From Escherichia coli (GTDB lineage: Bacteria > Pseudomonadota > Gammaproteobacteria > Enterobacterales > Enterobacteriaceae), in assembly GCF_024502345.1 (NCBI RefSeq), contig NZ_JALDNN010000001.1: a DNA stretch of 64,000 nucleotides, one strand, 5' to 3'. The first letter of the stretch is position 1. Every line of letters starts with the position of its first letter. The notes under the pieces were generated by a model. That model was not told the DNA's origin. It saw only the letters and a program-made list of their open reading frames with translations, and did no database searches. Below are positions 1-56,352 of the stretch, in pieces. A program made the position numbers and the translations under genes.

Positions 1-644
1 TGACCGTGCATCGCAAGCTGAGCAATCAGCTTGGAGACGTGCTGAGGTGTGAAGAACTCCCCTCCAGACTTACCGGCATTTGCCGCATAGTTAGAAATCA
101 GGAACTCGTAGGCATCACCAAACAGGTCAATCTGGTGCTCGTTAAAATTCCCCAGGTTAAGCCCTTCAACGCCTTTCAGAACGGCGGCAAGACGGCTGTT
201 TTTGTCTTTAACTGTGTTACCCAGTCGATTGCTGGTCGTATCGAAATCGGCGAACAGGCCTTTGATGTCGGCCTCGGACGGATAGCCGTAGGCAGAGCTT
301 TCTATAGCGACGAAGATACTATTTAAATCAGCATTCAGCCTGTCGTTGGTGTTCGCTTTAGCGGCAACGTTGCAGAACAGCTGGCTCGGGTAGATGAAAT
401 AGCCTTTAGTCCTGATGGCATCGTCTTTGATGTCATCGGTAATGATGCTGTCATCAAGTGCTGCATAATGTATGCTCTCATCCCCTGCTTCCATGTAGCT
501 GGAAAAATTCTCACTGATGAAGCGGTAGAAAAGTGCACCGAGTACATACTGTTTAAAATCCCATCCATCTACTGAGCCCCTGACATCATTGGCAATGGCC
601 CAGATTTGACGGTGTAGCTCTGCACGCTGTTGAAGGCTTGTCAT
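1..644 (-). CDS. hsdM: Type I R-M DNA methyltransferase subunit HsdM, 5' portion only (gene runs off the window start)
   Basis: Minus-strand frame reads [15 protein letters not shown]...; near-identical at nucleotide level to 58480..59122 of the complete hsdM; start codon (cat on + strand) at 642..644. Confidence 0.85.
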
Positions 645-847
645 TTTGTATCCTGTTGTATGATTCTTAAGTACTGTTATTGGCCCGATTTTATCGCAAT
701 TTCATATGGATGACAGGCTTTGTATGTCATGCGTTGCACTGAGAGTTCGTTTGCCCGGTTGTGTAGCCAACACTCTTTCAGTCAGGCCAGTAGAAACGTT
801 GCGCTGACGATAAATACTGAAGCCCCAATACCATCGGGGCTGAACGT

Positions 848-2725
848 TCAGTCGGTGAGAATTTCTTCATCCGTATCCATTGTGGATGGTGATGAATCTA
901 TTTTTGTTGTAAGAAATACCCGATTCAGTAGTCTTTGCTTCAGGGCGTTTCTTCGCTCATTGTAGAATTCCGGGAAGTGACTGAACTCAATATTTTCATC
1001 TGAAACTAACAGCATTGATGGCGAATAGTTGTTTGATGGCTGAGATAGCCATTGTTTCAGGGAAGTATCCTGTTTACTTATATTCTGAGAGTGATTCAGT
1101 AAATGAAGATTCGGTATGGTGTCCCAGTATTCCGGATTTTCATAAAAGCTGAGCTTCTCAGGTGAATTCGCAATATAATCTAGTTTTTCAAGATATTTCT
1201 TTGAAAAATGATTTCTTGGGTGAAGGTGATCAATATGAAATACCTCGGTTGGATTCATTTCAGGGAACAGAAGATGCAATAGTGCGCGGCAACGACCTTC
1301 GCCATATCTGATATTGAGAAGGCTTTCGATGTATTCGTCGTCAAATCTGAGGTCTTTATTCGAGCCTTTATATCTGTCAATAATCTTTTCAAGAGGAAAG
1401 TGAATATCTGAAAGACTATTTTTCATTACCTCTCTGATACTCGTGAGTAGCGCATCTGCCTGGCTTCCAAAGATCCCTTTCAGAAGTACCATGTAAAACC
1501 ACTGGCTAATTACTGAGCGTTCATTGTGGTTTTTATTCAGGAGGTTAATCGTTGTATATAATGGATGTCCACTGGTTTGCTTTTTGTAAAGCCAGTAGAC
1601 CACAGGAATGACTGCATTTTTAGATATCAAAGACTGTGGATTGATGCCGAATCGCCTGATAAGAATAAAGGTCTCCTTGATACAGGATTTTATTTCAGAC
1701 CATTGTTGTTGTATCTTACCGACCTCCTCTGAAGTGAAGTTTTTTACTTTGAACCGGACGTCAGAGTCAATAAGCATCAGGCTGGTTTTTAAGAACCAGT
1801 CTCTTTCAATATAAAAACCCATTTCATTATTCTGATAAATGTTTTTTGTCAGTTCATCCAGTTCTCTTCTGAAATCCCCCTGCCAGTGCGCTACCGCTAT
1901 TGACATCAGTAAGTCTGAAAACTCAAGTTTTGTCCCCCCGCTGTTCGTGCGGATGAAAACATCCAGCACATGATCAATGTCCTGACTGCTCTCATTGAAG
2001 TAGTGGATAAGATTCTCAGTTCTTATCTTGGTATAAAGTTTAAGCAGAGTTTTTCTGGAAAATTCACTGGAAATGAGATCTCTTTTTTCAAGTTCTGGTA
2101 CGACAACGTTAAATAAAATATCATCAGGCGAATCATGTTGCTCGTATTTGAATATTTCGTGCAGGCAGAACCAGTGATGTTTGTTGTCTGTAAGTGAATC
2201 AGCGTATTGCTTGTCGGTCAGGAACCTGAAGTTATACTTCATCATGAGTTCGTCGTCTGACTTAAGTGGCGCGGTTAAATCGACGTAAAGCTTTCTGGGC
2301 GGCAGGATGCGATCATCCTGTGCCGAAGGCCACCACATCCGGGGCTGTTTATACGCATACGTTCCACACAATCCAATATATAATGATGTGAGACGCTGCT
2401 GACCATCAATCACCGCTTTGAAATCATGAAATCCAGCATTTGTTGCTACGCAGGGGTTTTCTTCATTAAATCGCTGACAGTATTCTTTCAGGAATTCATA
2501 GAATTTGTAATCATTTTTAATACTGGCACTACGGATATCCCACATCATGAAAGAGTTTATCGGGTAGTCTCGCATGATGGAATCAAACAGCAAACATATC
2601 TGACTGCTGCTCCAGACGAACTTCCTCTGAATTGCAGGCAGAAGATAGTGGCGTAAATTAATTGAATCTATCGCTTGTTTTATCGTTATTGCTTTTTCAT
2701 ACTGGCCAGCCATCATAAACCTCAT
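848..2725 (-). CDS. DUF262/DUF1524 two-domain nuclease, GmrSD-like (putative modification-dependent Type IV restriction enzyme)
   Basis: 625-aa ORF with N-terminal DGQQR motif (DUF262/ParB-like) and C-terminal HIDHLHP His-Me finger motif (DUF1524); sits between hsdM and the WYL-regulator module. Confidence 0.6.
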   Translation of the reverse strand: MRFMMAGQYEKAITIKQAIDSINLRHYLLPAIQRKFVWSSSQICLLFDSIMRDYPINSFMMWDIRSASIKNDYKFYEFLKEYCQRFNEENPCVATNAGFHDFKAVIDGQQRLTSLYIGLCGTYAYKQPRMWWPSAQDDRILPPRKLYVDLTAPLKSDDELMMKYNFRFLTDKQYADSLTDNKHHWFCLHEIFKYEQHDSPDDILFNVVVPELEKRDLISSEFSRKTLLKLYTKIRTENLIHYFNESSQDIDHVLDVFIRTNSGGTKLEFSDLLMSIAVAHWQGDFRRELDELTKNIYQNNEMGFYIERDWFLKTSLMLIDSDVRFKVKNFTSEEVGKIQQQWSEIKSCIKETFILIRRFGINPQSLISKNAVIPVVYWLYKKQTSGHPLYTTINLLNKNHNERSVISQWFYMVLLKGIFGSQADALLTSIREVMKNSLSDIHFPLEKIIDRYKGSNKDLRFDDEYIESLLNIRYGEGRCRALLHLLFPEMNPTEVFHIDHLHPRNHFSKKYLEKLDYIANSPEKLSFYENPEYWDTIPNLHLLNHSQNISKQDTSLKQWLSQPSNNYSPSMLLVSDENIEFSHFPEFYNERRNALKQRLLNRVFLTTKIDSSPSTMDTDEEILTD

Positions 2726-2786
2726 ATGTTATATTAGCTGGCCTATTTTAATTTATTGCGTGTCGGTAGTACAGTCTTTGCACAAA

Positions 2787-3116
2787 CTAATTTATGCAAT
2801 GGAAAAGCTGACGGCTCGGTTTGTGTTTTTCATTCGGGTAGACTCGCATTGCGGATGCACAAAGTGATGAAACCTGTCTTGCTATATTTTTACCGAAGTT
2901 AACAAGAAGGCCGTGCTTTATTTTTTCACCCTCTGCCCTGATGCTGATGATAAAGCTGAACTGATATACGATTACCTCAATGAGGTCATTGCCAAATGTT
3001 ATAATGGCGGCGTTGTTTATTTCATGTTCATAATCCCTCAGGTCAGTGTTAAGTCTTGCTGTTGCATCTACAAGTGCGTATTCTTTATCGATAATCATAA
3101 CTTTCTCACTTATCAT
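2787..3116 (-). CDS. hypothetical protein (109 aa), paralog of 60147..60482
   Basis: ORF co-directional with and 40 bp downstream of the WYL regulator gene; conservative substitutions versus its paralog; no strong SD, and an overlapping + strand ORF exists, so strand assignment is tentative. Confidence 0.45.
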   Translation of the reverse strand: MISEKVMIIDKEYALVDATARLNTDLRDYEHEINNAAIITFGNDLIEVIVYQFSFIISIRAEGEKIKHGLLVNFGKNIARQVSSLCASAMRVYPNEKHKPSRQLFHCIN

Positions 3117-3156
3117 GTTAATGTGATTTAATCATCACTAATAATATGTTGTGATT

Positions 3157-3870
3157 TTAATTACGATTATTCGTCTGTTTACTCCCGTAATGCATTATCT
3201 TATGAATAATGTTCATGTGGGGTAAGGCTTCCATAAAGTCAGACTGTTCAATCAGCGAAATGAGTGTGTTATCGATCTCAAACGTTGTATCCGGTAATAC
3301 CTCAACCAGCCTGATTCGGGACAGGGAAATAACGAACACGCCCGATGACGTACATCCGGCAAGAAACCACTCCGCATGGCTGCAAAGCAGACGGTAGGGA
3401 TGAACGGTATGGCTGACGTTTTCGTCGGTTCTGATACGCACCTGGGTCTGGTTAAGTATGGCGAGCGTCAGTCTGCTGAAATCACCGAAAAGGGTGGGTT
3501 TCTGGCGCGGCTCCGGTAGCATAATCCTGTATGGCGAGGGACGTTCCCCGTCAAGCATCAGGCTCAGTAGTTTGGCATCCATCGCGGGTAACAGACGGTC
3601 AAGATGCAGCAACCTCGCCAGTATCTTCATATCCCGTTCCGTGCGGCGACGAAAGTAATGTGAGGCAAGCTGATACACGCCGTTGCTCTGTTCAATATCA
3701 AGGTAGGTCAGACGGACGTTGAAATCCCGTCGCAGCGTTCGCGTCGTCACTCCAAATTCTTCTGCCAGCGTCCCGATATGCAGCTTTTCACCCTGAAACA
3801 AACGGCTCAGGATGATGGAAAGGCGGGTTGCCAGTCTGTCATGTTCGTTTTCTTGTGTTATCAGCGTCAT
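3157..3870 (-). CDS. HTH-WYL domain transcriptional regulator (YfjR/BrxR-like architecture)
   Basis: 237 aa; N-terminal HTH (LAEEFGVTTRTLRRDF) and central W-x-L-type motif (HAEWFLAG); differs from paralog 60523..61236 at about 3 residues. Confidence 0.6.
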   Translation of the reverse strand: MTLITQENEHDRLATRLSIILSRLFQGEKLHIGTLAEEFGVTTRTLRRDFNVRLTYLDIEQSNGVYQLASHYFRRRTERDMKILARLLHLDRLLPAMDAKLLSLMLDGERPSPYRIMLPEPRQKPTLFGDFSRLTLAILNQTQVRIRTDENVSHTVHPYRLLCSHAEWFLAGCTSSGVFVISLSRIRLVEVLPDTTFEIDNTLISLIEQSDFMEALPHMNIIHKIMHYGSKQTNNRN

Positions 3871-3972
3871 ACATCATTTCCGAATTTAGCCGGGAAATGA
3901 TGCCAGCAGTAGCGGACAGGATTTGTCCGCCCTCTGAAGTTTTTTAAAGTCTGAATACCTTAAATGTAAGTG

Positions 3973-4288
3973 CTAAACGTCAGTATTCTCAGGTGAATAA
4001 AGATGCTTCTGGCGCATGTAGGCAATAAAAATGCAGGATGGTAGCGTCACCCGGTATGCGGGACCGGCTAAATCAATCAGCAGCCAGAGAGAACTGAGCA
4101 CCCAGCCCACGGGACCGGCAAAAGCGCCCATGGTACGCGTCAGCATGGCATTTCCTGCAACGGTCAGCCCTCTGCCTAACAGGGCTTTCGCCACACCATT
4201 TGTGACAACAAGTGCCATCTGATAGGCCGCAAACCCGGATGTTTTAATCCCCGCCTGGATTGCCATGGTCAGCAGCTCCGGCGTGGGA
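3973..4288 (-). pseudogene. 3' fragment of the 249-aa module protein (paralog of 61339..62088), truncated at a recombination junction
   Basis: Nucleotide homology to 61339..61660 ends abruptly near 4288; only the C-terminal ~100 codons remain. Confidence 0.6.
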
Positions 4289-4289
4289 T

Positions 4290-4562
4290 TGCTGTATCGC
4301 AGACGATACCGAGCAGGAGATACCAGCCATCATCAAGTGCGGTGACGTATTCCGGGTTAGCCAGTGCCACTGCCAGCAGCGGGTCTTCGGGGAGTGTGTC
4401 ATCGTGGTTGAGATGCCAGAGCAGGGTTCCCGTTTCGTTCCAGAAGGCGGTAAACAGGTCGATATCATCGACAGGGCCAAGGATTTCATTGCTGAGGGCC
4501 ACCAGTGCGGAGGCGGGCAGGTTGAGAAGGGGAAGACTGGTGGGAGTCGTGAGTTTAAACAT
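4290..4562 (-). pseudogene. 5' fragment of an unidentified gene fused to the junction at ~4288
   Basis: Start ATG at 4562 (MFKLTTPTSLPLLNLPASALVALSNEILGPVDD...); reading frame runs into the junction and ends in non-homologous sequence. Confidence 0.3.
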
Positions 4563-5081
4563 GATTATCTCCATAAGTAATTGATTCATATTGATAATAT
4601 GTTTTCAAATGACTTTTAGTTACATTTTTTTTACGTTGTTTGCTTATTTTGGATTATGTCCTTAAATTTAGTAGTGGGCTGGCGTTAAATCCCGTTTTTT
4701 TTCCGATTTGCAGCATTTTGTAAGCAAATTAGCATGAGCTGTTTTAACTGAAAATGAGAGAAGGCTTGCGCACAATTGCTATTGATTTTCTTACTTATTT
4801 TCTCAATCACAAAACGCCTTAAATAGTTCAAAAAACAATCAACACCCCATAATCGATATTATTTATGGGGAGAAACGACGTTTAAGCCTGAAAGTGGGGG
4901 AGTGGCACTTTCAGGAGATTAAGGAGGCAAACAGGCCTCTTTAACGCGTGTTTTTCTCACCAAAATGTCAGAGTCGGTGATTTGCACTTCAGTATTTCTG
5001 CCAATACTATTCGCTCCATGTGCTGGCCAGCATCTAACTCAATACCCTTAATCTGTATTAATTGAGCGAGATGTATGCATT

Positions 5082-6404
5082 ATGAAACCCGATAGTTCTT
5101 TAAACCAAATAACGCAGACAATGAAACGGAATGATGTTGATTCTGTGGATAGTCGCTTTTTTGAGTCAGCGCAAAACATGAAAACCAGCGTTGACGTTGA
5201 AGATTGCTGCGTTGAAGTGATGGTTCGACATCACAGCCCAAAGAATCAAAGAGAGGCATTCACTAAAGCTTTTTTTGATGAGTGTAAAATCCGTGCAGTA
5301 CAAACTGGCCGGACTATCGAAGCCAGCGATACAAAATGTACCGGGCTTAAGGCTATATTCCACTCATCCGGACGCATTAAGTTTATTGTCCGCAAAAGTA
5401 TTCGCGGAAAGAATGTTTACGTTGCAGTAGGAAGTTACCCTGAATTTTCCATTAATAACGCAAGGGAACATGCCTTTAAAATAATTCAGGAGCTTAAGGC
5501 TTCCGTTGAGACTTATGGTGAGCGTTTTCTTACGCACAGCAAAATAACGTTTAATGAACTTGTGGAACAGTATGTGAAATGCGTACTTAACACGGGCGTT
5601 AAGCGTTCAGCTAACACCGACCTTTCTAAGATCCGTAAATACCTGCGCCCTCTTCTCGGTGACAAAAAGCTGGCAGGTATGACGGAGGCAGATGTTCTGA
5701 GCTATCTACACGATCTCGATCTTAAGCCTGCCACACGCAACCGCCACCTGGCGCTCATTAAAGCGGTCTTTACCTGGGCTATACGCATGGGATACACCAG
5801 CCGCTCTCCGGCGCTTTATATCAAAGCGCTGCCTGAAGTGACGTCAGATCGCCGCGCCATGGATGACTCCCAGCTTCAGCGCTGGATGGAAGTCTGTGAG
5901 TGCTGGCGTAATGGTAAACCCGATCATGAAGCCCTTGCTCTGCTCATGTTCCTTGCCCTGACGGGGCTGCGTCTGGGGGAAACCCGTCACCTTCGTCTTG
6001 AAGATGTGGACTGGAGCCGCAAGGTTATCACCCTTCGCCATACCAAAAACGGCAAACTCCGCCGTGTACCGGTATGTGATAAGGCTTTCGTTCTTCTGAC
6101 AGAACAGCGTCAGCATCTGGGTGATGAAGGCTGGGTATTTCCGGGCAAGGGGACCGACAATCCGGTTTCTGAGCCGCGTCGCCTGCAAAAACGGCTTTGT
6201 GAGGCTGCGGGTATTCCACCGTTCACCATCCATGAGATGCGCCATACCTTTGCGACAAAACTCATTGAGAGCGGGGCCGACATTCACACCGTCAAAGACT
6301 TACTGGGCCACAGCACTATCAAAGTGACGGAGCTTTACTTGCACGCTTCCCCGGCGCGTTACCACGAAGCTGTTAACCGGGCGATGAATGTTTTTCCGGC
6401 CTAA
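5082..6404 (+). CDS. tyrosine-type site-specific recombinase (phage/island integrase)
   Basis: 440 aa; catalytic-domain motifs GLRLGETRHLRLEDVD, HEMRHTFAT and LLGHSTIKVTELYLH (R-H-R-Y signature). Confidence 0.8.
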   Translation: MKPDSSLNQITQTMKRNDVDSVDSRFFESAQNMKTSVDVEDCCVEVMVRHHSPKNQREAFTKAFFDECKIRAVQTGRTIEASDTKCTGLKAIFHSSGRIKFIVRKSIRGKNVYVAVGSYPEFSINNAREHAFKIIQELKASVETYGERFLTHSKITFNELVEQYVKCVLNTGVKRSANTDLSKIRKYLRPLLGDKKLAGMTEADVLSYLHDLDLKPATRNRHLALIKAVFTWAIRMGYTSRSPALYIKALPEVTSDRRAMDDSQLQRWMEVCECWRNGKPDHEALALLMFLALTGLRLGETRHLRLEDVDWSRKVITLRHTKNGKLRRVPVCDKAFVLLTEQRQHLGDEGWVFPGKGTDNPVSEPRRLQKRLCEAAGIPPFTIHEMRHTFATKLIESGADIHTVKDLLGHSTIKVTELYLHASPARYHEAVNRAMNVFPA

Positions 6405-6476
6405 ACAGAATTCCCCCTCAGGCAAGTGAGTTCTGCGCTTTACTGCCTGTGGTTCACATTCAAAAGGAACCTGTAA

Positions 6477-7172
6477 ATGAATAATAAATCAACACCATCC
6501 CCCTTGACTACAACGACCCCCGCTCGTTTTGCCTGCAGGAAATTAAATGCATTTCTGGCTCGTCGTGCTCTTCATATGAAGGTGGTAAGAAAAAACCTGA
6601 ACAAGGCTGCTGCAATCGACATCGATCTCGATGACATTTCTAAGTGCGGATGCCGTGATGGTCTGCCTGAAGGCTTTGTCAATACTGCAAAAGGGCTTTT
6701 CTATTATGAAGGAAAAAAATGGTACCAGTTAAGCTCGACCCCCATTCTCCCTGTCTACAGGCATTATTCTGATTGTAAAACGCGCAATATGGGCGTCGAG
6801 TTGATGACTATCAACCATGCTGGAGAGTTCGCCTGTGCTGATGTCTCATTAAGTGATGCAATGGTAAAACCTGATCACGTCATGGCTTCTCTGGCGGGCA
6901 AAGGTTTTGGTATCTCCCTGACGATAAAGTCTAAAGAGCTTCTGGTGCAATTCTTACAGGTGTGTATGAAGAAATCGCTGGAATTGCCTACTTATCTTGT
7001 CGCAGATTCGATGGGTTTTGTGCCTGGCAACAAAGCATTTCTTCACGGCAGTATACCTATCGCGCAGCACCTTTTGGAATTTGACTATTTGATTCCGGCT
7101 TCCCGTGTTCCACGAGGGCTTGTCGAGTCGGGAACGCTGGATGACTGGAAAACGATGGTACCTGTGAAATGA
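6477..7172 (+). CDS. hypothetical protein, possibly 3'-truncated island gene
   Basis: 231-aa ORF directly downstream of the integrase; its 3' end overlaps an opposite-strand ORF, suggesting a deletion junction. Confidence 0.35.
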   Translation: MNNKSTPSPLTTTTPARFACRKLNAFLARRALHMKVVRKNLNKAAAIDIDLDDISKCGCRDGLPEGFVNTAKGLFYYEGKKWYQLSSTPILPVYRHYSDCKTRNMGVELMTINHAGEFACADVSLSDAMVKPDHVMASLAGKGFGISLTIKSKELLVQFLQVCMKKSLELPTYLVADSMGFVPGNKAFLHGSIPIAQHLLEFDYLIPASRVPRGLVESGTLDDWKTMVPVK

Positions 7173-7468
7173 ATCCATTCTGATTCACCGAAGTCACTGG
7201 TCTGGTGTGACAGCGAGTACAGCCAGGCGTTATCCTTTTCCGTGATATGTGCGGTACTGCAGCGTATGCCGGCAAGGGTTGCAAACGGTGGTAGTGTGCA
7301 GGTTGACTGTTGGTCGGATTCCTCCACCACGCGGAGTGAATAACCGTTTTCAGCGACCTTGTTAATCAGTTCAGTGAGATTAACACCATCGACATCAACG
7401 ACAATTCGCCCCATGTTCAGTGCCTGCACATTAATGCTGTCGGCTTCCAACGTCAGGGCCAGTTTCAT
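7085..7468 (-). CDS. hypothetical small protein downstream of the yfjR-like gene; real extent uncertain
   Basis: ORF starting MKLALTLEADSINVQALNMGRIVVDVDG...; distal part overlaps 6477..7172 on the other strand and is probably not genuine. Confidence 0.3.
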   Translation of the reverse strand: MKLALTLEADSINVQALNMGRIVVDVDGVNLTELINKVAENGYSLRVVEESDQQSTCTLPPFATLAGIRCSTAHITEKDNAWLYSLSHQTSDFGESEWIHFTGTIVFQSSSVPDSTSPRGTREAGIK

Positions 7469-7577
7469 TGTTTCGCCTCCGGATGCTTCCCCTGGGTAAT
7501 GTTATTTACCGTTCTGTAGTTATCGCGGGTCATCAGGCCGGTTGCCCTGCGAGCCCGGAGAATATCAATACTGTTTA

Positions 7578-8228
7578 TTAACTGAGAGCGGGTAAGGACT
7601 GAATAAATCCCGGGTCTTCAACAAGACGACACAGACTGTCGTTACGCCGGAAAGTCTCCTGCAGGGGCTGAACCAGATGGATTTCATCCAGGGAGAATAC
7701 GGCGATATGTCCGTCGTGCTCTGCCACCAGATACCAGGCCTGCTGGTGGATAAGTAACCGGCAGGGAGCCAGCCGCTCACAGCGCTGCCCCTCGGCAATC
7801 AGAGTCACCCGCCTGCGCCCGGTAATGGCCTGAATCAGTCGCCAGAAAGACAATGCGCCTGATGGCGAAGGAGCCGGACTGGCGGGTGCGATTACGCAGG
7901 GAGACTCATCGCACATCAGCAGTGCGTTTACCAGACGACGGTCAAAGCCAGGGAAAAGACCGGCCATCCCGCTGCGGTGGGCAAAGATAAGCACGTCGGG
8001 CACCATCTGCGTCTCACTGCCCGCAGTGCGTAAGCGGTAATATCCGGACTGATACTCCAGGTCCAGATACATCAGCCGCTCACGAAAATCACGCCGCAGC
8101 GTGCGCACCGACACACCAAACTCAGCGGCAAGCTTACGCACACTCAGCGTTTCCCCTGCCACCAGACGGCTGATTATCAGTGACAGCCTGACAGCCAGCC
8201 GGTCATGGCGGCGTTCTGCCTGTGTCAT
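7578..8228 (-). CDS. yfjR: HTH-WYL regulator, YfjR-like (CP4-57-type island)
   Basis: 216 aa; HTH ([16 protein letters not shown]) plus AWYLVA motif; lies downstream of yfjP/yfjQ-like genes in the order recalled for E. coli CP4-57. Confidence 0.7.
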
Positions 8229-8444
8229 GAGACGTTCTCCGTGAAAGTTAACTGACTGAAAATGATGTGATTACTTTAAAGAGGGGGTCGGACAGGGTAT
8301 GGACACCACAGAAACTATTTTTCATTTCTGCAAAAGCCAGAGGCAGCGGGGGTTACAGGCCTTCCCTCGGTGAGTGAGGACCGTCAGCACGGTGCGATGC
8401 GGACAGGTGGTGTCCGATATTAACAAAGCAGCAACATTAAACGG

Positions 8445-9266
8445 TCACTGCAGTTGCGTGAGCAGGGCTTCCGCCATCACCCACAGTGCCCGGTTAAGTT
8501 TCACGTCCCCGTCGATACCGCGAACGGCACGGGTATGTGACCGTCCTCCTTTGGCATTACGGCCACTGAGCCCGCCCTTAATCAGGTTCTCCTGAATACG
8601 CTGGTACGTGGTCCACAGGTCATTGCTCTCATCCTGCCAGCGGCGAGGGGAGAGGATCTGCGATTCAGTCACCGGCTGGTGGTCTTCACCAAAGCGGTAT
8701 GTGAGGGCGGCTTTTGCCAGTGCCTGCTGTGCCGGGGGTGGCAACAGCAACGACTGCATGGCATCCCGTTTCTCCTCCACCCGGTCAAAAATCCCCAGCA
8801 CCTCATACGCGCCTTCAATCACCTGACTCACCACGTCCCCCTTGTGTGGCACCCGCACCTCGCCAAACGACTCACCGCAGACGAGCCCGTTCTGACAAAC
8901 CGCACGAAATAGTCCCGGCAACATCTGATACGAACTAGTGCCATCGTGGGAGTTGAGCAGGATAATTTCTGGTACCTGTTTACCGGTAATCTGCCCCTCA
9001 CGCCGCAGACGCAGCATATGCTTTGTATGTTCACGACGACCGGGGTCACGCACGCGGGTCTGACAGGCAAAGAATGGCTGGAAGCCTTCTCGCTGTAGGC
9101 TGTCGAGCAGGGAGATGGTAGGTATATAGGTATAACGCTCACTGCGGGATTCATGTTTGTCCTCGCTGAATACACTGGGCACCACGCGAAACAGCTCCTC
9201 ACGGGTTAACGGGCGGTCGCGACGGATAAGGTTTGCTGCGCCAAAGCGCGAAGCCAGACGGGTCAT
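8445..9266 (-). CDS. yfjQ: DUF932-family protein, YfjQ-like
   Basis: Start moved to internal ATG (MTRLASRFGAANLIRRDRPL...) which has a GAGGAG SD; sequence closely matches recalled YfjQ. Confidence 0.75.
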   Translation of the reverse strand: MTRLASRFGAANLIRRDRPLTREELFRVVPSVFSEDKHESRSERYTYIPTISLLDSLQREGFQPFFACQTRVRDPGRREHTKHMLRLRREGQITGKQVPEIILLNSHDGTSSYQMLPGLFRAVCQNGLVCGESFGEVRVPHKGDVVSQVIEGAYEVLGIFDRVEEKRDAMQSLLLPPPAQQALAKAALTYRFGEDHQPVTESQILSPRRWQDESNDLWTTYQRIQENLIKGGLSGRNAKGGRSHTRAVRGIDGDVKLNRALWVMAEALLTQLQ

Positions 9267-9357
9267 AAGCAGACTCCTCATAATGGGAAAACAAATAAAA
9301 GAAATCCCCGTCGCATCGGCGACAGGGTTAGGGAAATAACAGGGATGGGTTAAATAC

Positions 9358-10221
9358 TCAGAAGAAGAAATCCCAGACGGCACGGGCCACTGACACCACG
9401 GTGGTGCGCACGGCCTGAATGACGGCCCGCACCGGGGCGGGGATCAGGGGAAAGGCACTGATGCTATCGAGTACAGCACCGACGGTTTCACCAAAATCGC
9501 TACGCGCCTGTTCCCGGACTACCGTCGTGCGAAAGGAAGGCTGGAGTTGCGACACCACCGGGCTGGTGGCCTCACGTGGCAGGCACTTAATCATTCGCTC
9601 GGCCATCACCCGCAGTCCCCACTGAAGACGGACCGACACGGCACACACTGGATGTACGGGCTGGAACAGCTCATGCAGCAGGCAGATTTTGCGGCTGATA
9701 TTCTGCTTCTGCGCCGTGGACAACTGTCCCCCACCGCTGGTAGGTTCGGCCTTATCCGACTGGCTGATAACAAACAGCACCTTATGCCGGTATACCTCTC
9801 CAATCACCTGATGATAAAAATGTTCATCCACCGTCAGCGCCCGGTCATCGGCCTTAATCAGCCACAGTACCAGGTCGAGGCGAGGAAGCTGTTCGCGGTA
9901 CAGCGCAGCATACTCGGTATCGCGAGCACCACTTTCGCCCACGCCGGGCAGATCCATCAGCGTTATATAGCGGTCGCCAACCTGCAGGCGAAAGCGCAGT
10001 GGCTCACGTGTACAGGCCGCCACATCGCTGACCGGTGATACCTCACTGGCAAACAGGGCATTGCAGAGTGAGGATTTACCGGCACCGCTCTTACCCATAA
10101 TGCCGATCACTGGCTCGTAGCGGGTTAACTGATTTATCTGCTGCAATATACGTTCAGACACCCACTGTGGCAGACCAGCGAGCGATTGCTGAAACGGCTT
10201 CAATCCTTCAGAATTGTTCAT
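9358..10221 (-). CDS. yfjP: island-associated GTPase, YfjP/YeeP/YkfA family
   Basis: Walker A GKSGAGKSSLCNALF; start placed at MNNSEGLKPFQQSL with GAGGAG SD. Confidence 0.8.
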   Translation of the reverse strand: MNNSEGLKPFQQSLAGLPQWVSERILQQINQLTRYEPVIGIMGKSGAGKSSLCNALFASEVSPVSDVAACTREPLRFRLQVGDRYITLMDLPGVGESGARDTEYAALYREQLPRLDLVLWLIKADDRALTVDEHFYHQVIGEVYRHKVLFVISQSDKAEPTSGGGQLSTAQKQNISRKICLLHELFQPVHPVCAVSVRLQWGLRVMAERMIKCLPREATSPVVSQLQPSFRTTVVREQARSDFGETVGAVLDSISAFPLIPAPVRAVIQAVRTTVVSVARAVWDFFF

Positions 10222-10327
10222 TACTACTCCTCTGAAAAATAATACAAAAACGGCAGAATCGTGAGATTCCACCGTTAATCTGGTATGTTCAAAGGGATGA
10301 TATATATCTGAAAATTATTAACTTGAT

Positions 10328-11254
10328 CTACTTTTTGTCTTTTTTACGTGATGAAACAGCCTGCAGCCAAGCATGCTTCATTTTCTGAATAAAGAAATAT
10401 TTTTCTTCAACTCCAGTGTCCCAACTATCCATGCATGCAATGATCATCTGTATTCTCATTGCAGTGTTATATGGTTTTAAATAAAAGGGGATCATATTTT
10501 TATTTCTCAGATACTCCCAGCAATAGATAGCTTGCTTTTCATCTTTTTTATCTAGCCAGTCATAATCAGTAAGAAATGTATTATATTGCTCTAGCCATTT
10601 ATCATGCAACTTACGAAAATAGGAAATTTTCTGACTTAAACTTACAGGAGCTAAATCAATAAACCTCATCAAAGTACAAATGCGTTCTTGTTCGGATGTT
10701 GTATTCGGGCTGTAGTTGTCGGGATCTGCGCCAGATGTTAAATAAAATCTACGCGAGTATTTTTCAGGTATATCTCTATTTTTTTCTTTATTGCTAGGGG
10801 AGGTTCCCACCTGCATTTCGGCTTGTACTTCATCAAGTGAGAAATTTTTAATTTCATCAATGTTTATAAATTCAAAAAAGGATGCAGGAGTTGAGTTCGG
10901 GTTGTAAATATTATCTTGTGCAAAGATATTCACGCTCGAGGAGGTTTCAGGACTGATTCTGTTGTTATATATATACATTAAGGCAAACCACGATCCTCTA
11001 TCAGAACCTTTGAAACAATCGAACTTCTCTTTGTCAATGATTTTGTAATGGAACTGTTTTTTCAAGTAAGTACGCGCACTTTGTATTGCTTCATTATTGA
11101 ATAGGAATTTAGTGTTCAATATATGATTAATGAGTTTTTGAAATTCCTCAGGCGTGTCGAAATTACTCGCCTGCTTAATGTAATCTTCGTTGTAATACAG
11201 ACTCAGAACGTAAAGGGAAAAGAACTCCTCTCTCACTTCGTCATACCTAAGCAT
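10328..11254 (-). CDS. hypothetical protein (308 aa), AT-rich orphan gene
   Basis: Long uninterrupted ORF in visibly AT-rich DNA immediately upstream of the yfjP-like GTPase; no motif recognised. Confidence 0.5.
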   Translation of the reverse strand: MLRYDEVREEFFSLYVLSLYYNEDYIKQASNFDTPEEFQKLINHILNTKFLFNNEAIQSARTYLKKQFHYKIIDKEKFDCFKGSDRGSWFALMYIYNNRISPETSSSVNIFAQDNIYNPNSTPASFFEFINIDEIKNFSLDEVQAEMQVGTSPSNKEKNRDIPEKYSRRFYLTSGADPDNYSPNTTSEQERICTLMRFIDLAPVSLSQKISYFRKLHDKWLEQYNTFLTDYDWLDKKDEKQAIYCWEYLRNKNMIPFYLKPYNTAMRIQMIIACMDSWDTGVEEKYFFIQKMKHAWLQAVSSRKKDKK

Positions 11255-11572
11255 GTACCCTCCAGTGTGATATCACATCTGTCCGATGCTTTCAAAAGTA
11301 TAAATGAACCATGATGATTTGGCATCTGCAAGGTGACTGTTGACTGGTTTTTTGCTGATTTTTTAATGATAAAGTAGTGATTACTAACTGATTAGTAAGT
11401 GATTAATGGCTGGTTGCCTCCTGTGATTTTTCTGCCTCTGGTAAATTGGGGGAGAGTACTGATCAACTCACCACTCTGAATAATTTTCATGATTGCACTC
11501 TACAAAGTTTCGACATCCGTCAAATTGTAACGGTCAGAGAACAGCGTTACACGAGGTTTTCCGTATCTATGC

Positions 11573-12629
11573 GGCTTTGTTGAATAAATCGAACTTTTGC
11601 TGAGTTGAAGGATCAGATCACGTATCTTCCCGACAACGCAGACCGTTCCGTGGCAAAGCAAAAGTTCAAAATCACCAACTGGCCCACCTACAATAAAGCC
11701 CTCATCAACCGTGGCTCCATAACTTTCTGGCTGGATGATGAAGCTATTCAGGCCTGGTATGAGTCAGCAACACCTTCTTCACGAGGCAGACCTCAGCGCT
11801 ATTCTGACCTTGCCATCACGACTGTGCTGGTCATTAAACGCGTATTCAGGCTGACCCTGCGCGCTGCGCAGGGCTTTATTGATTCCATTTTTTCTCTGAT
11901 GAACGTTCCGCTACGCTGCCCGGATTACAGCTGTGTCAGCAGGCGGGCAAAGTCGGTTAATGTCAGTTTCAAAACGCCCACCCGGGGTGAAATCGCACAC
12001 CTGGTAATTGATTCCACCGGGCTGAAGGTCTTCGGTGAAGGCGAGTGGAAAGTCAAAAAGCATGGCCAGGAACGCCGCCGTATCTGGCGTAAGCTGCATC
12101 TCGCCGTTGACAGTAAAACACATGAAATCATCTGCGCTGACCTGTCGCTGAACAACGTTACGGACTCAGAGGCCTTCCCCGGGTTAATCCGGCAAACCCA
12201 CCGGAAAATCAGGTCAGCCGCCGCCGATGGCGCTTACGATACCCGGCTATGTCACGATGAACTGCGGCGTAAGAAAATCAGCGCGCTTATCCCTCCCCGA
12301 AAAGGTGCGGGTTACTGGCCCGGTGAATATGCAGACCGTAACCGTGCAGTGGCTAATCAGCGAATGACCGGGAGTAATGCGCGGTGGAAATGGACAACAG
12401 ATTACAACCGTCGCTCGATAGCGGAAACGGCGATGTACCGGGTAAAACAGCTGTTCGGGGGTTCACTGACACTGCGTGACTACGATGGTCAGGTTGCAGA
12501 GGCTATGGCCCTGGTACGAGCGCTGAACAAAATGACGAAAGCAGGTATGCCTGAAAGCGTGCGTATTGCCTGAAAACACAACCCGCTACGGGGGAGACTT
12601 ACCCGAAATCTGATTTATTCAACAAAGCC
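11573..12629 (+). mobile_element. IS903-group insertion sequence (IS5 family), 1057 bp
   Basis: Terminal inverted repeats GGCTTTGTTGAATAAATCG at 11573 and its complement ending at 12629; internal sequence matches recalled IS903; flanking 9-mers differ (no target-site duplication). Confidence 0.9.
11605..12573 (+). CDS. IS903 transposase
   Basis: 322-codon ORF filling the element; DDE transposase of the IS903/IS102 type; ORF track start is a TTG codon. Confidence 0.9.
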   Translation: MKDQITYLPDNADRSVAKQKFKITNWPTYNKALINRGSITFWLDDEAIQAWYESATPSSRGRPQRYSDLAITTVLVIKRVFRLTLRAAQGFIDSIFSLMNVPLRCPDYSCVSRRAKSVNVSFKTPTRGEIAHLVIDSTGLKVFGEGEWKVKKHGQERRRIWRKLHLAVDSKTHEIICADLSLNNVTDSEAFPGLIRQTHRKIRSAAADGAYDTRLCHDELRRKKISALIPPRKGAGYWPGEYADRNRAVANQRMTGSNARWKWTTDYNRRSIAETAMYRVKQLFGGSLTLRDYDGQVAEAMALVRALNKMTKAGMPESVRIA

Positions 12630-13024: not shown

Positions 13025-13636
13025 ATGCTTAATGATATTTATCTTGACCAACGTCATGCCCCATTCAATACAACGTATTTGCAACGGATGCTGGGTGTAA
13101 TTGATAACGCTATAGCACAACACCCAAGGACAATGGCTGTCCGTGTCGATCTACGTCTGCCTGATGACAACTGTAATAGGAATAGTGGTCTGATATCCCG
13201 TTTCATTGAATCGCTTAATGCAAAAATCGATGCTCGGTACCGAAATAAAATAAAGAATGGCATCAGGAGCTACCCATGCCAGTTGCGTTACGCCTGGGTT
13301 CGGGAAGTGGGAGAAATAAACGAGAAGTCCCATTACCACATGGTACTTTTCGTGAACAAAGACACATTCAATGGACTTGGGAGCTATGGAGAAGGGGGAA
13401 CGGGATTAGCCAGCCTGATACGTGAAGCCTGGCTGAGCGCTTTGCAACTAGGCCCTTACCCCGAATACCGAACGTTGGTCCACATCCCGGACAACCCATT
13501 GTATTACCTGGACGTCAATAATTTAGACTACAAAACGGTTTACGATAAACTCACTTTCAGGCTGAGTTATTTTGCGAAAGAGCGCACCAAGTCATACAGC
13601 CGAGATGAACGCTCGTTTGGCTGCAGTCAGTCCTGA
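13025..13636 (+). CDS. YagK/YfjJ-family (inovirus Gp2-like) island protein
   Basis: 203 aa starting MLNDIYLDQRHAPFNTTYLQRM...; family typical of CP4-type islands (recalled similarity). Confidence 0.6.
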   Translation: MLNDIYLDQRHAPFNTTYLQRMLGVIDNAIAQHPRTMAVRVDLRLPDDNCNRNSGLISRFIESLNAKIDARYRNKIKNGIRSYPCQLRYAWVREVGEINEKSHYHMVLFVNKDTFNGLGSYGEGGTGLASLIREAWLSALQLGPYPEYRTLVHIPDNPLYYLDVNNLDYKTVYDKLTFRLSYFAKERTKSYSRDERSFGCSQS

Positions 13637-47649: not shown

Positions 47650-49517
<1,868 letters not shown>

Positions 49518-50781: not shown

Positions 50782-52044
50782 CTATTTTAATGGATTGTTA
50801 ATCTTTGCATATTCAAACGGACTGATACCCTTCTCCCGGTTCGCATCCAGAAAATCGGCCCACCATTGCAACATCAGTCGCCGTTCTTCCAGATGTTCTG
50901 CTTTATGGATATACGCAGCACGTACACCATTACGCTCCTGATGGCTCATCTGACGTTCCACAGCATCGCGGGACCACAAACCTGATTCAATCAATGCACT
51001 GCACGCCATCGCCCGGAATCCATGGCCACAGACTTCCTGGGTTGTGTCATACCCCATCACCCTCAGGGCTTTATTTACAGTATTTTCACTGATTGGTTTA
51101 CGCGGGTCATGTGCACCCGTAAATATCAGACCATTTTCACCTGCCCATGTCTGAAGTTCTGTCAGTATGGCTACAGCCTGTTTGCTGAGTGGCACAAGAT
51201 GTGGTGTTCGCATCTTGGAGCCCCGGTGTGAGAATTTTACGCCGGGCAGAGGTTCGCGTTCGGCTGGAATAGTCCACATGGCATTGTCAATATCAATTTC
51301 AGACCACCGGGCGTATCTGAGTTCACTGGAACGAATAAAAACCAGTAAATTCAGCGTAACGGCAAGCTGGGTGACAGGTTGCCCCTTGTAACTGCTAATA
51401 CGCGACAAAAGTTCAGGCAGGCGAGAAAGATCAAGAGCGGGGCGATGCTGGCGTTTTACAGTGGTCAATGCGCCAGCCATATCCAGAGCAGGATTATATC
51501 TGATGATGCCAGACTGTACGGCATAACGCATTACAGCAGATATTCTTTGCTGCAGACGACTGGCGATTTCATAAATTTGTTTAGCTTCTGCGGCACGAAC
51601 AGGGATAAGCAGGTCCGGGGTACGGAGTGTTGTGATATCCCGGTTGCCGATAAAGGGGAAAACGTGTGTCTCGAGGCTTTTGAGTACTTTATCGCTGTGT
51701 GATTGTGCCCATTGTTTATTACTGGCATGCCAGCGTCGTGCAATATGTTCAAAAGAGAGTTGTAAATCAGGGACTACTTTTTTAGCTCTTTTTTGTTCGC
51801 AAGGGTCAACCCCCTCCGAAATCAGTTTTCGGGCCTCATCCCGTTTTGTACGAGCTTCGGAGAGAGAAACTTCCGGATACACACCAAGTGCCAGGGTTTT
51901 CTCCTTACCCAGAATACGATAACGGAGACGCCAGTAACGGGAACCATTAGGATGAACCAGCAGGAACATGCCGGCCCCGTCAGTGAGTTTATAAGCCTTG
52001 TCAGTGGGCTTTGCAGCCCGGATTTTTGCGTCAGTCAGTGCCAT
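50782..52044 (-). CDS. P4-type tyrosine integrase (tRNA-associated genomic island integrase)
   Basis: 420 aa, MALTDAKIRAAKPTDKAYKLTDGAGMFLLV... N-terminal arm-binding domain and catalytic R..HGFR..Y core; adjacent to a tRNA-Phe 3' fragment. Confidence 0.85.
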   Translation of the reverse strand: MALTDAKIRAAKPTDKAYKLTDGAGMFLLVHPNGSRYWRLRYRILGKEKTLALGVYPEVSLSEARTKRDEARKLISEGVDPCEQKRAKKVVPDLQLSFEHIARRWHASNKQWAQSHSDKVLKSLETHVFPFIGNRDITTLRTPDLLIPVRAAEAKQIYEIASRLQQRISAVMRYAVQSGIIRYNPALDMAGALTTVKRQHRPALDLSRLPELLSRISSYKGQPVTQLAVTLNLLVFIRSSELRYARWSEIDIDNAMWTIPAEREPLPGVKFSHRGSKMRTPHLVPLSKQAVAILTELQTWAGENGLIFTGAHDPRKPISENTVNKALRVMGYDTTQEVCGHGFRAMACSALIESGLWSRDAVERQMSHQERNGVRAAYIHKAEHLEERRLMLQWWADFLDANREKGISPFEYAKINNPLK

Positions 52045-52241
52045 AGTTCAGCCTTCTGAATGCGTTAAAGAGGGTACAAATTCTGTCGAACTGGGGTATA
52101 CCCGCAATTATACCCACACAATGGGGTTGATGTGGGGGGAATCTGGTTGAGTTCGGTAGAATTGATTTGGAGGCAGAACGCTTAAATTGTGGCGTTCTGA
52201 AACGAAAAACGGACCTCCGTGGAGGTCCGTTGATATGAATT

Positions 52242-52290
52242 TGGTGCCCGGACTCGGAATCGAACCAAGGACACGGGGATTTTCAATCCC
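52242..52290 (-). repeat. 3'-terminal 49 nt of tRNA-Phe (island attachment-site repeat), not a complete tRNA gene
   Basis: Minus strand reads GGGATTGAAAATCCCCGTGTCCTTGGTTCGATTCCGAGTCCGGGCACCA, matching the anticodon-loop-to-CCA part of recalled E. coli tRNA-Phe; match stops abruptly at 52290. Confidence 0.75.
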
Positions 52291-52567
52291 TTTAAAAGAG
52301 CCCAAACGATCCATCAGCACTAACAGTTTTTTACTGGTTTACCTTGAGAAAAATGTTTAAGTTTGGTTCTTCATGACTTAAGTATTGCTTAAATACGGCG
52401 TTTCGAAGCTACCAGAATCCTACCATTATGAGCCTATGCCCATAGAAGAGAAATTATCTCCCGTTCTCGCGATTCAATGACTAAAAATCAGACGGTGCAG
52501 GCTTTTAGATACTGATATTATATCTTTTGGGTAAAGTATTAATCTCTGTTGAGATAGGCTCTTAGCC

Positions 52568-52906
52568 CTAAAATAGCCGAGCAGCAAACGCCAAAACAAC
52601 AATACTGACATTACCATTAACTGTCGCGATAGTTCTGAGTCGGTCGTCTTTCAGGGTTTTACCGTCAAATGTTGCGATGGTGCGGAGTCGATCGTCTTTC
52701 AGGGTCTTTCCATCAAAGGTAGCGATGGTGCGGAGTCGGTCGTCTTTCAGGGTTTTACCGTCAAAAGTTGCGATGGTTCTGAGCCGGTCGTCTTTCAGGG
52801 TTTTACCGTCAAACGTTGCGATGGTCCTGAGTCGATCATCTTTCAAGGTCTTGCCATCAAAGGTCGCGATAGTCCTGAGTCGATCGTCTTTTATAGTTAC
52901 GCTCAT
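52568..52906 (-). CDS. tandem-repeat protein: five identical 16-aa units (KDDRLRTIATFDGKTL) plus a degenerate sixth
   Basis: 48-bp DNA units differ from each other only at synonymous positions; AGGAGA SD before the second ATG; about 215 bp downstream of hsdR on the same strand. Confidence 0.6.
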   Translation of the reverse strand: MSVTIKDDRLRTIATFDGKTLKDDRLRTIATFDGKTLKDDRLRTIATFDGKTLKDDRLRTIATFDGKTLKDDRLRTIATFDGKTLKDDRLRTIATVNGNVSIVVLAFAARLF

Positions 52907-53127
52907 AAGCATTCTCCTGTGATACGTCCGTTCAGCACTTTACCATCCAAAATAAAGCACTGGTTTCTGTAAGTTCTGGGCGCTAATCATTTGAATATGC
53001 GTTTAAAATCCATCCAGTTAGCATTAACATTAACCAGCGCTTCATCGATCATAACAGGTCTGATGCAGGTTAAAAGATACAATCTTACCTATAAATTGCG
53101 GTAGCGCATTGCTCTGTTATCTGGCAT

Positions 53128-56244: not shown

Positions 56245-56307
56245 GGAGCATCCTGTGCGTCATCTGGCAAAGTCCGGAAGGGTATCAGAAGCATCTTCCG
56301 GCATTCA

Positions 56308-56352
56308 TAAAACCTGATACCGGACGGGTGAGAACAAACCCTGCCGGTATCA
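56308..56352 (-). terminator. stem-loop in the hsdS-hsdR intergenic region (possible hsdMS terminator or regulatory structure)
   Basis: 8-bp inverted repeat GATACCGG...CCGGTATC followed by a T-rich run on the minus strand. Confidence 0.35.

Follow-up and report, generated by a model that had tools for sequence, protein, structure and literature searches.

A CP4-type GTPase, DUF932 and WYL-regulator gene trio in a rearranged genomic island of Escherichia coli

The DNA analysed here was a 64,000-nucleotide stretch of Escherichia coli contig NZ_JALDNN010000001.1 (assembly GCF_024502345.1), referred to below as the window. An earlier note on this DNA had claimed genes for a GTPase, a DUF932-like protein and an HTH-WYL regulator. 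All three were found, and 7578..10221 corresponds to the interval from the stop codon of the WYL regulator gene to the ATG of the GTPase gene. The open reading frame list and the translations, trimmed to annotated starts, placed all three genes on the minus strand:

9358..10221, minus strand: YfjP/YkfA-family P-loop GTPase, 287 aa, intact, containing IMGKSGAGKSSLCNALF
8445..9266, minus strand: DUF932 protein (YafZ/YfjQ family), 273 aa, intact
8229..8444, minus strand: spacer 5' of the regulator gene, 216 bp, conserved with K-12 yfjQ-yfjR by alignment
7578..8228, minus strand: YfjR-like HTH_DeoR plus WYL regulator, 216 aa, C-terminus truncated

The GTPase scored 58.4 bits against Pfam MMR_HSR1 (cut-off 21.9), and its best PDB sequence matches were structures of Der and Era (E = 8e-9). 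Its motifs were G1 GKSGAGKS at aa 43-50, G3 DLPG at aa 90-93 and a G4-like SQSD at aa 153-156, which is non-canonical and stands where [NT]KxD is expected. The gene product is a predicted TRAFAC-class small GTPase (MMR_HSR1; Era/EngA-like). The second protein matched Pfam DUF932 (PF06067) with 182.1 bits (cut-off 23) over profile positions 1-227 of 227; related clusters at 50% identity number 5,415. C124, N126, H141 and E226 were invariant, and the AF2 model (pLDDT 92) had a fold with no solved relative. The regulator scored 26.1 against HTH_DeoR (cut-off 21) and 25.8 against WYL (cut-off 21.8), and a PDB sequence search with it gave nothing useful. Residues 1-213 aligned with 233-aa relatives, the final 20 aa being replaced by ALS and a stop codon. 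The gaps of 91 bp between the GTPase and DUF932 genes and 216 bp between the DUF932 and regulator genes were the same as in K-12 yfjP-yfjQ-yfjR. Within the 216-bp spacer, GGACA-N5-TGTCC and TGTCC-N6-TGTCC motifs form a possible operator.

In order to place the trio among the K-12 islands, the proteins were compared by blastp with YfjP, YfjQ and YfjR of CP4-57, as the earlier note had proposed. The identities were 84.7%, 97.8% and 93.9%, with E-values down to 0, so the similarity is far beyond chance. Higher values were obtained with CP4-6: the GTPase was 96.2% identical to YkfA, the DUF932 protein 100% identical to YafZ, and the N-terminus of the regulator 100% identical to the 63-aa ykfK stump. 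At the DNA level the trio was 95.9% identical to ykfA-yafZ-ykfK over 2,284 bp compared with 86.0% to CP4-57 (blastn). The trio had been described as being of CP4-57 type and in the CP4-57 order; membership of the CP4 family and colinearity were borne out, but among the K-12 paralogues CP4-6, and not CP4-57, is the nearest. In K-12 terms, and judged by these alignments, the trio is a CP4-6-type allele that keeps most of the regulator gene that CP4-6 has lost. The trio itself is already known: the annotation of hundreds of complete E. coli genomes includes it, and RefSeq contains identical proteins.

The island of strain G3/10 (NZ_CP060075.1, 842-900 kb, pheV) was 100% identical to the window over positions 7590-11572 and 12630-38000, a stretch that includes the trio, a 308-aa hypothetical gene, a YfjJ-like gene and a captured appC'BA segment. 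The window GTPase was 100% identical to G3/10 WP_016239725.1, and residues 1-213 of the regulator were 100% identical to a 233-aa G3/10 protein. The G3/10 island terminates at tRNA-Phe beside yqgA, and strain 0H26 carries the same island at the other tRNA-Phe locus, pheU. Two features far from the trio in the window were linked to this island:

50782..52044, minus strand: P4-type integrase, 420 aa, same strand as the trio
52242..52290, minus strand: tRNA-Phe 3' fragment (att-type repeat), 49 nt, exact tRNA-Phe match

The integrase (52044..50782) aligned with IntA along its whole length at 35% identity (E = 3e-77) and was 100% identical to the 0H26 integrase adjoining tRNA-Phe. It adjoins the tRNA-Phe fragment but lies 40 kb from the trio, with a mosaic in between. 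From its orientation and from synteny with G3/10 and 0H26, we infer that it is likely the integrase of the large tRNA-Phe island holding the trio. The stretch of about 40 kb between them is made up of IS elements and captured pieces of the chromosome and may represent several elements rather than one. No second copy of the tRNA-Phe fragment was found in the window at up to 4 mismatches; a partner copy might exist beyond its ends. ARAGORN detected no complete tRNA or tmRNA gene in the 64-kb window, which ruled out a location at CP4-57/ssrA or at CP4-6/thrW. Orthology with K-12 CP4-57 was rejected, as CP4-6 was closer, no tmRNA was present in the window and the identical island of G3/10 lies at tRNA-Phe. 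The trio locus is orthologous to neither CP4-6 nor CP4-57. The sole Rfam match in the window was isrC at 49 kb, and no RNA family was matched in the trio or close by.

Upstream of the trio, the following features were identified:

10328..11254, minus strand: hypothetical gene, 308 aa, AT-rich (GC 0.385), directly upstream of the GTPase gene
11573..12629, plus strand: IS903B, 1057 bp, with 18-bp inverted repeats GGCTTTGTTGAATAAATC
13025..13636, plus strand: YagK/YfjJ-like (inovirus Gp2 family) gene, YagK_YfjJ_C E = 4.1e-52

The 308-aa product is identical in G3/10 (WP_001547760.1) and belongs to the G3/10-type island; it gave no Pfam, PADLOC, NCBIfam or PHROG match, and YfjH, PerR and YagM were rejected as homologues for want of a blastp match. 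The YagK/YfjJ-like gene, reported earlier as lying on the opposite strand, was located on the plus strand by its Pfam domain and was 36.7% identical to YfjJ and 40% to YagK. The IS903 said to interrupt the island was confirmed as 100% identical to an annotated IS903B, with an IS5-family transposase (357 bits). It stands in place of 347 bp of the G3/10 island (segment L001, 19969-20315). The alpA-like HTH gene of G3/10 (L001 20100..20306) falls within the lost 347 bp and is absent from the window. No 9-bp target duplication flanked IS903B, which fits an adjacent 347-bp deletion.

Downstream of the trio, comparison with G3/10 and with strain ET846 located two joints at base level and the remnants between them:

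7590..7604, no strand: deletion joint, about 3.5 kb of backbone absent relative to G3/10 (blastn)
7165..7589, minus strand: distal backbone remnants, the cbtA 3' end and a truncated DUF5983 gene
7159..7164, no strand: fusion joint between the CP4-type remnant and an unrelated neighbour element, inside a truncated DUF927 gene

Window positions 7590-11572 correspond to L001 15986-19968 and positions 7159-7604 to L001 12001-12448 (blastn), and the junction sequences place the crossover of the deletion at a short GGGTA microhomology. The genes lost at this joint are the 3' end of the regulator gene, ypjK, yfjS/yafY, ykfB, the DUF905, antirestriction and JAB/RadC genes, the DUF987 gene, yafW and the 5' part of cbtA. 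The distal CP4 backbone, from ypjK through the CbeA/CbtA-type toxin-antitoxin pair, is thus deleted save for two remnants. Of the cbtA-family toxin gene the 3' 142 bp are left, at about 7465-7604 according to blastn against G3/10 and its annotation. Of the DUF5983 (YeeW-like) gene the N-terminal ~103 codons remain, from 7468 down to about 7159 (Pfam DUF5983_N, 105.6 bits; 75% identity to K-12 YeeW). At the second joint, window 1-7164 matched ET846 (segment L002) up to 24923, and window 7159 onward matched G3/10 L001 from 12001. The DUF927 gene at 6477..7172 is truncated there, its full length in ET846 being 1641 bp. Of 5,426 complete E. coli genomes, none carried either joint.

The several fragments noted earlier are accounted for by the truncated DUF927 gene, the truncated DUF5983 gene and the cbtA 3' end. 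The description of the island as rearranged and decayed likewise holds, given the truncated regulator, the ~3.5 kb of deleted backbone, the replacement of the alpA-like gene by IS903B and the inverted yfjJ-like gene. Immobility of the island is plausible from the gene content, as it lacks the distal end, the att partner and alpA.

Taken as a whole, the locus is probably a CP4 backbone trio that survives as a remnant in a tRNA-Phe mosaic island cut by three strain-specific events. The trio belongs to the conserved backbone shared by P4-like ('CP4') integrative islands of E. coli, and the copy here would be what survives of it in a large mosaic island of tRNA-Phe (pheV/pheU) type. A microhomology deletion would have removed the last 20 codons of the regulator gene and ~3.5 kb of downstream backbone. 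A fusion at ~7164 would have joined a defence-type neighbour element, with loss of the distal end, and an IS903B-associated deletion would have removed the alpA-like gene. The useful outcome is a corrected locus map, with a CP4-6-like allele in a tRNA-Phe mosaic and a foreign nearby integrase, in which three private deletion, fusion and IS events account for the fragments.

Selection on the trio was evaluated from dN/dS. The values were 0.13-0.16 for the GTPase gene, 0.076 for the regulator gene and 0.016 for the DUF932 gene compared with yfjQ; compared with yafZ, the DUF932 gene had 0 nonsynonymous and 19 synonymous differences. Their intact state and the strong purifying selection on them suggest that the genes for the GTPase and the DUF932 protein probably retain a function and are not junk. 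A promoter scan was uninformative (8 sites found, 8.0 +/- 2.8 expected). Terminator-like hairpins were seen between the trio genes, the scan being only suggestive with 12 sites where 7.0 +/- 3.1 were expected. The literature yielded no functional work on yfjP or yfjQ and only passing mentions of DUF932. In a study of persister resuscitation, yfjR and yfjP deletions had a weaker effect than alpA (bioRxiv 10.1101/2021.04.10.439273). By gSELEX the sole YfjR target was its own operon (PMC8249747), while ChIP-exo in K-12 detected no YfjR binding under the conditions tried (PMC8464067), a result that conflicts with the gSELEX assignment. The YfjR-like protein would be an HTH plus WYL ligand-sensing regulator of its own operon (yfjR-ypjK-yfjS-yfjT in K-12) and, since that operon is deleted, it is orphaned and possibly inactive here. 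The GTPase would act as an Era/EngA-like G protein.

The DUF932 protein would be a stand-alone mobile-element factor. Homologues with about 66% identity were present on at least 5,000 enterobacterial plasmids, 88% of them conjugative, and homologues with ~40% identity occurred in phage-like contigs with no GTPase or WYL neighbours. Its position in IncF leading regions by oriT and in phage early or DNA-metabolism regions suggests that it probably acts while incoming DNA becomes established in a new host. Strong purifying selection, intact survival in decaying islands and sharing with plasmid leading regions make DUF932 a reasonable candidate factor for mobile-element establishment in new hosts. 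A more far-reaching proposal is that DUF932 is an unrecognised enzyme or establishment factor common to plasmid leading regions, phages and CP4-type islands, with the GTPase and the WYL sensor-regulator as a possible control layer in islands; we regard this as unlikely. If true, DNA dismissed as cryptic prophage junk would encode a module that is active and under selection, serving in entry, anti-defence or defence. The window's sole addition to the DUF932-factor idea is the intact state of the GTPase and DUF932 genes amid decaying surroundings.

The trio could also be an active self-contained system, for example for anti-phage defence or anti-defence, in which a WYL sensor controls GTPase and DUF932 effectors. 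Defence loci are commonly under WYL regulators, and the regulator matched the generic PADLOC WYL profile (E = 3.6e-32); the GTPase weakly matched a LeoBC-type dynamin-like defence protein (E = 4e-5), but the system models of PADLOC-DB 2.0 gave none convincing for the GTPase and none for DUF932. The purifying selection on the trio and its defence-rich surroundings (type I restriction-modification and DUF262 genes, with TIR genes in G3/10) agree with such a role, as does a report that the DUF932 gene of a Variovorax integrated plasmid gained mutations after phage challenge (bioRxiv 10.1101/2025.06.20.660599). However, DUF932 is found alone in plasmids and phages, and K-12 CP4-6 has the GTPase and DUF932 genes with only a 63-aa regulator stump. 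In the SRL island an Ag43 gene parts the GTPase gene from the DUF932 gene (PMC6980539), which makes the trio syntenic and not an obligate operon. The gSELEX target of the regulator lies downstream and is not the GTPase or DUF932 genes (PMC8249747), and the hairpins between the genes add weak evidence against a single unit. A self-contained system of this kind is unlikely.

The reading first given to this DNA was a single decayed CP4-57-type island comprising the integrase at 5082..6404, the trio, IS903 and the yfjJ-like gene. Every named gene was indeed found within 9 kb. The integrase is on the plus strand, opposite to the trio, and has a Phage_integrase domain as claimed, with the Arm-DNA-bind_3, Phage_int_M and Phage_integrase arrangement typical of P4-like integrases (Arm-DNA-bind_3 at 23.7 bits, below its cut-off of 27), but its membership of the trio's island was not upheld. 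Its identity was just 19% to IntA and 22% to IntF, no tRNA or tmRNA gene lies beside it, and the fusion joint in the truncated DUF927 gene parts it from the trio. It was 100% identical to the integrase of a separate ET846 element without yfjPQR, which carries a type I restriction-modification system and DUF262, YafY and DUF927 genes; in ET846 and about 25 other genomes it keeps this different gene set with yfjPQR not beside it. Conversely, the G3/10 trio has a full backbone and no counterpart of this integrase. From these comparisons, the integrase at 5082..6404 belongs to the neighbouring restriction-modification/DUF262 element fused at ~7164. With the trio also nearer to CP4-6 than to CP4-57, the single-island reading is largely refuted and very unlikely to be correct.

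It is extremely improbable that the block derives from the leading region of an integrated conjugative plasmid, as a remnant of it, and not from a P4-like island: DUF932, DUF905, KlcA-like antirestriction and toxin-antitoxin genes are common to the CP4 backbone and IncF leading regions, but the plasmid DUF932 is ~66% identical compared with 98-100% for chromosomal island copies, plasmids carry just 12 of the 1,005 DNA-level trio matches, no tra, oriT, ssb or psiB lies near the trio, and the gene order is that of CP4-6 and CP4-57.

The CP4 remnant in a tRNA-Phe mosaic can be compared with several known systems. In an IncF plasmid, the hok/psiAB/ssb/DUF905 leading-region genes flank DUF932 on one side and the SLT gene with traM on the other, and it adjoins oriT. 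The plasmid protein is ~66% identical and of the same length and, like that of the CP4 backbone, is accompanied by a DUF905 gene; it has ssb, psiB and psiA near it and no GTPase or WYL neighbour. K-12 CP4-44 (yeeP-isrC-flu) and Shigella SRL orf46-orf48 contain the GTPase and DUF932 families in the same backbone (PMC6980539). In both, an Ag43 autotransporter gene follows the GTPase gene and a WYL regulator is not listed; K-12 yeeP is a pseudogene 44% identical to the window GTPase.

CP4-57 yfjP-yfjQ-yfjR is colinear with the window trio, with gene lengths of 864, 822 and 702 bp and spacers of 91 and 216 bp. It holds the sole intact K-12 copy of the WYL regulator, whereas that of the window is truncated. 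CP4-57 lies at ssrA with IntA, alpA, yfjI and yfjJ on the same strand; the window has no ssrA, its yfjJ-like gene is inverted and its alpA is deleted. In CP4-6 (ykfA-yafZ-ykfK pseudogene), the gene order, strand relationship, gene lengths and spacers are all as in the window. CP4-6 lies at thrW, in contrast to the tRNA-Phe-type mosaic island of the window copy. Of the regulator gene, CP4-6 retains just 63 codons and the window 213 of 233, while the downstream backbone (yafY through ykfI) is kept in CP4-6 and deleted in the window. The G3/10 island has a full-length regulator, the whole ypjK-to-DUF4942 backbone and an alpA-like gene and lacks IS903B; relative to it, the window differs by two private deletions and one private fusion.

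The trio consists of a GTPase of the YfjP/YkfA family, a DUF932 protein (YfjQ/YafZ) and an HTH-WYL regulator (YfjR-like). Its ORFs were taken from the ORF list, translated and trimmed to the RefSeq-annotated start codons of identical genes:

10221..9358, minus strand: GTPase, 287 aa, which includes GKSGAGKSSLCNALF
9266..8445, minus strand: DUF932 protein, 273 aa
8228..7578, minus strand: HTH_DeoR+WYL protein, 216 aa

The interval 7578-10221 is the exact span from the first ATG (GTPase) to the last stop codon (regulator), and the Pfam domains of all three proteins passed the curated cut-offs. Two gene lengths (864 and 822 bp) and both spacers (91 and 216 bp) were equal to those of K-12 yfjP-yfjQ-yfjR. 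In blastp alignments, the identities to YfjP, YfjQ and YfjR were 84.7%, 97.8% and 93.9%, respectively. The yfjP/yfjQ/yfjR gene order given in the earlier note was therefore borne out by lengths, spacers and identities, and the alignment did not return the low similarity that the note had named as contrary evidence. The GTPase carries G1 (GKSGAGKS) and G3 (DLPG) motifs and an atypical G4 (SQSD), and is Era/EngA-like. Against the K-12 paralogues, the GTPase gene gave dN/dS values of 0.13-0.16, the DUF932 gene 0.016 and the regulator gene 0.076, and the DUF932 gene differed from yafZ by 19 synonymous and no nonsynonymous changes. This comparison indicates strong purifying selection on the trio genes; with the exception of the truncated regulator, they are not pseudogenes in the making.

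Upstream, the GTPase gene is adjoined by an AT-rich 308-aa ORF (10328-11254, minus strand, GC about 0.385) that is conserved in E. coli G3/10. Searches of Pfam, NCBIfam, PADLOC and PHROGs gave no match for it, and it did not resemble YfjH, PerR or YagM of K-12. GC-rich terminator-like hairpins with T tracts were found on the minus strand at 9306-9327, 8428-8451 and 10249-10276, that is, 3' of the GTPase, DUF932 and 308-aa genes, respectively, which hints at separate transcription units for these genes. As a whole, the terminator scan was weakly above the shuffled expectation (12 sites vs 7.0 +/- 3.1).

The earlier note had assigned the locus to a decayed CP4-57-type island. A decayed CP4-family backbone was confirmed, but its type is CP4-6-like: DNA identity was 95.9% over 2,284 bp to CP4-6 vs 86.0% over 2,731 bp to CP4-57. 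Protein identities were 96.2% (GTPase to YkfA) and 100% (DUF932 protein to YafZ), and regulator residues 1-63 were 100% identical to the ykfK pseudogene. Of the two islands, CP4-6 is nearer to the trio in sequence, and the locus is orthologous to neither. Window positions 7590-11572 and 12630-38000 were essentially 100% identical to G3/10, where the trio lies within a mosaic island of >58 kb terminating at tRNA-Phe beside yqgA. Strain 0H26 carries the same island at the other tRNA-Phe locus, which adjoins dicD and dsbD. We place the trio of the window in a mosaic island of the tRNA-Phe type.

The integrase at 5082..6404, counted in the earlier note as the island's own, did not prove to be so. 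It was only 19% identical to IntA and 22% to IntF, and 100% identical to an integrase of strain ET846 in a different element, which is ordered type I restriction-modification system, DUF262, YafY, DUF3944, integrase, full-length DUF927, and is without yfjPQR. The complete CP4 backbone of G3/10 lacks this integrase. ARAGORN found no tRNA or tmRNA in the 64-kb window. Two other features were present:

50782-52044, minus strand (the trio's strand): intact 420-aa integrase of the P4 type, sharing 35% identity with IntA along its whole length (E 3e-77)
52242-52290: 49-nt tRNA-Phe 3' fragment directly adjoining this integrase, with no complete tRNA gene

On one strand, the order of integrase, cargo, GTPase-DUF932-WYL and toxin-antitoxin remnant is the canonical CP4 layout, and we therefore infer that the trio belongs to the larger island of integrase 52044..50782, with a patchwork of about 40 kb between them. 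IS elements and captured pieces of the chromosome (appC'BA, etk', ykgEFG, mmuPM, tauABCD and hemB) make up this patchwork.

An integrase beside a tRNA-Phe fragment (50782-52290) is the mark of a tRNA-Phe site with tandem islands, and an ET846-like element starts immediately to the right. A defence-type element of one kind (hsdRSM of type I restriction-modification, DUF262, YafY-type WYL regulator, DUF3944, integrase and DUF927) is present twice, incomplete and in direct orientation, at window positions 1-7164 and 52567-64000, bracketing the mosaic of about 45 kb. The copies were 97.3% identical between 2803-4296 and 60169-61662, and 93.7% between 1-702 and 58479-59178; the full element is present in ET846 at pheV. 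At 848-3870 (minus strand), the element encodes a 625-aa protein with a DUF262 domain and a 237-aa WYL-type regulator of the YafY family, so that two unrelated WYL regulators lie at most 5 kb apart. A small ORF (52568-52912, minus strand) with about six tandem 48-bp (16-aa) repeats, including DDRLRTIATFDGKTLK, corresponds to an ET846 gene annotated '5-fold beta-flower protein'.

The cargo at 13900-45500, 100% identical to G3/10, is made of chromosomal segments sited elsewhere in K-12. They comprise appB and appA with a truncated appC, part of etk, ykgEFG, mmuPM, tauABCD, hemB, dld-like and lactate permease genes, an autotransporter and a diguanylate cyclase; two copies of ISKpn26/IS5 and IS1 and IS30 are scattered among them. 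In G3/10, the yfjJ'-appC'BA-etk'-IS5 segment occurs once more in degenerate form. The sole Rfam match in the window was a full-length isrC (49025-49147, minus strand, 140 bits), which overlaps an IS3-family orfA-like ORF (48766..49179) and does not adjoin the autotransporter gene (43486..46536), whereas in K-12 CP4-44 isrC lies between yeeP and flu.

Decay was mapped against the undeleted G3/10 island record (L001, NZ_CP060075.1). Window positions 7590-7604 are a deletion joint at a GGGTA microhomology, where about 3.5 kb (L001 12449-15985) is gone: the regulator's final 20 codons (its end now reads ...SLPALS*), ypjK, a lipoprotein gene (yfjS/yafY), ykfB, DUF905, an antirestriction gene, JAB/RadC, DUF987, yafW and two-thirds of cbtA from its 5' side. 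At 7159-7604, all that is retained is the 3' end of cbtA and about 103 N-terminal codons of a DUF5983 (YeeW-like) gene, and at 7159-7164 this remnant is fused to the truncated DUF927 gene of the 1-7164 block. Two further features lie beyond the 308-aa ORF:

11573-12629: IS903B, 100% identical to annotated copies, with 18-bp inverted repeats
13025..13636, opposite strand to the trio: YagK/YfjJ-like gene

No 9-bp target duplication was found at the ends of IS903B, which stands in place of 347 bp carrying an alpA-like HTH gene in G3/10; an adjacent deletion mediated by the IS, or recombination of two copies of IS903, would be consistent with this. The interruption of the island by fragments and IS903 was correctly noticed earlier, as was the opposite strand of the yagK/yfjJ-type gene, which in CP4-57 and CP4-6 is on the trio's strand. 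A 601-bp probe over the 7590-7604 and 7159-7164 joints had no match running across either of them among 5,426 complete E. coli genomes; both are therefore private and presumably recent events or, should the assembly be in error, possibly artefacts.

A search at megablast sensitivity found the trio in 591 of these genomes, in 1-4 places each (993 chromosomal vs 12 plasmid); the backbone portion with cbtA and DUF5983 was in 4,837. For the Shigella SRL island, the same gene families have been tabulated (PMC6980539). The module is a known one and is annotated routinely.

By gSELEX, K-12 YfjR is listed with one target, its own operon (PMC8249747); ChIP-exo detected no YfjR binding (PMC8464067), and a biofilm phenotype is cited for a yfjR mutant (PMC9308461). 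The 216-bp spacer upstream of the regulator is shared in conserved form with K-12, and the GGACA-N5-TGTCC and TGTCC-N6-TGTCC motifs within it may form an operator. Since the downstream operon is deleted and 20 residues are lost, the window regulator is at best an orphan.

The DUF932 family is very large, comprising 5,415 clusters at 50% identity. The AF2 model (80 homologues) is confident (pLDDT 92) and combines an N-terminal domain of antiparallel sheet with a bundle of helices at the C-terminus; C124, N126, H141 and E226 are invariant. At least 5,000 plasmids of enterobacteria carry homologues about 66% identical, and 88% of these plasmids are conjugative; on an IncF plasmid the gene lies in the leading region, at its oriT end, together with ssb, DUF905, parB-like, psiB, psiA and hok. 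Leading-region genes are known for early expression in recipients and an enrichment of anti-defence functions (PMC11541004). A role of DUF932 in the establishment of incoming DNA would therefore be the best available explanation.

Homologues about 40% identical lie on phage-like contigs among DNA-metabolism genes. PADLOC recognised no system for the trio, and the trio is not an obligate unit: on plasmids and phages DUF932 occurs without GTPase and WYL partners. K-12 CP4-6 lacks the regulator, of which 63 residues (ykfK) are all that is retained, and in SRL and CP4-44 it is Ag43 that is located after the GTPase gene.
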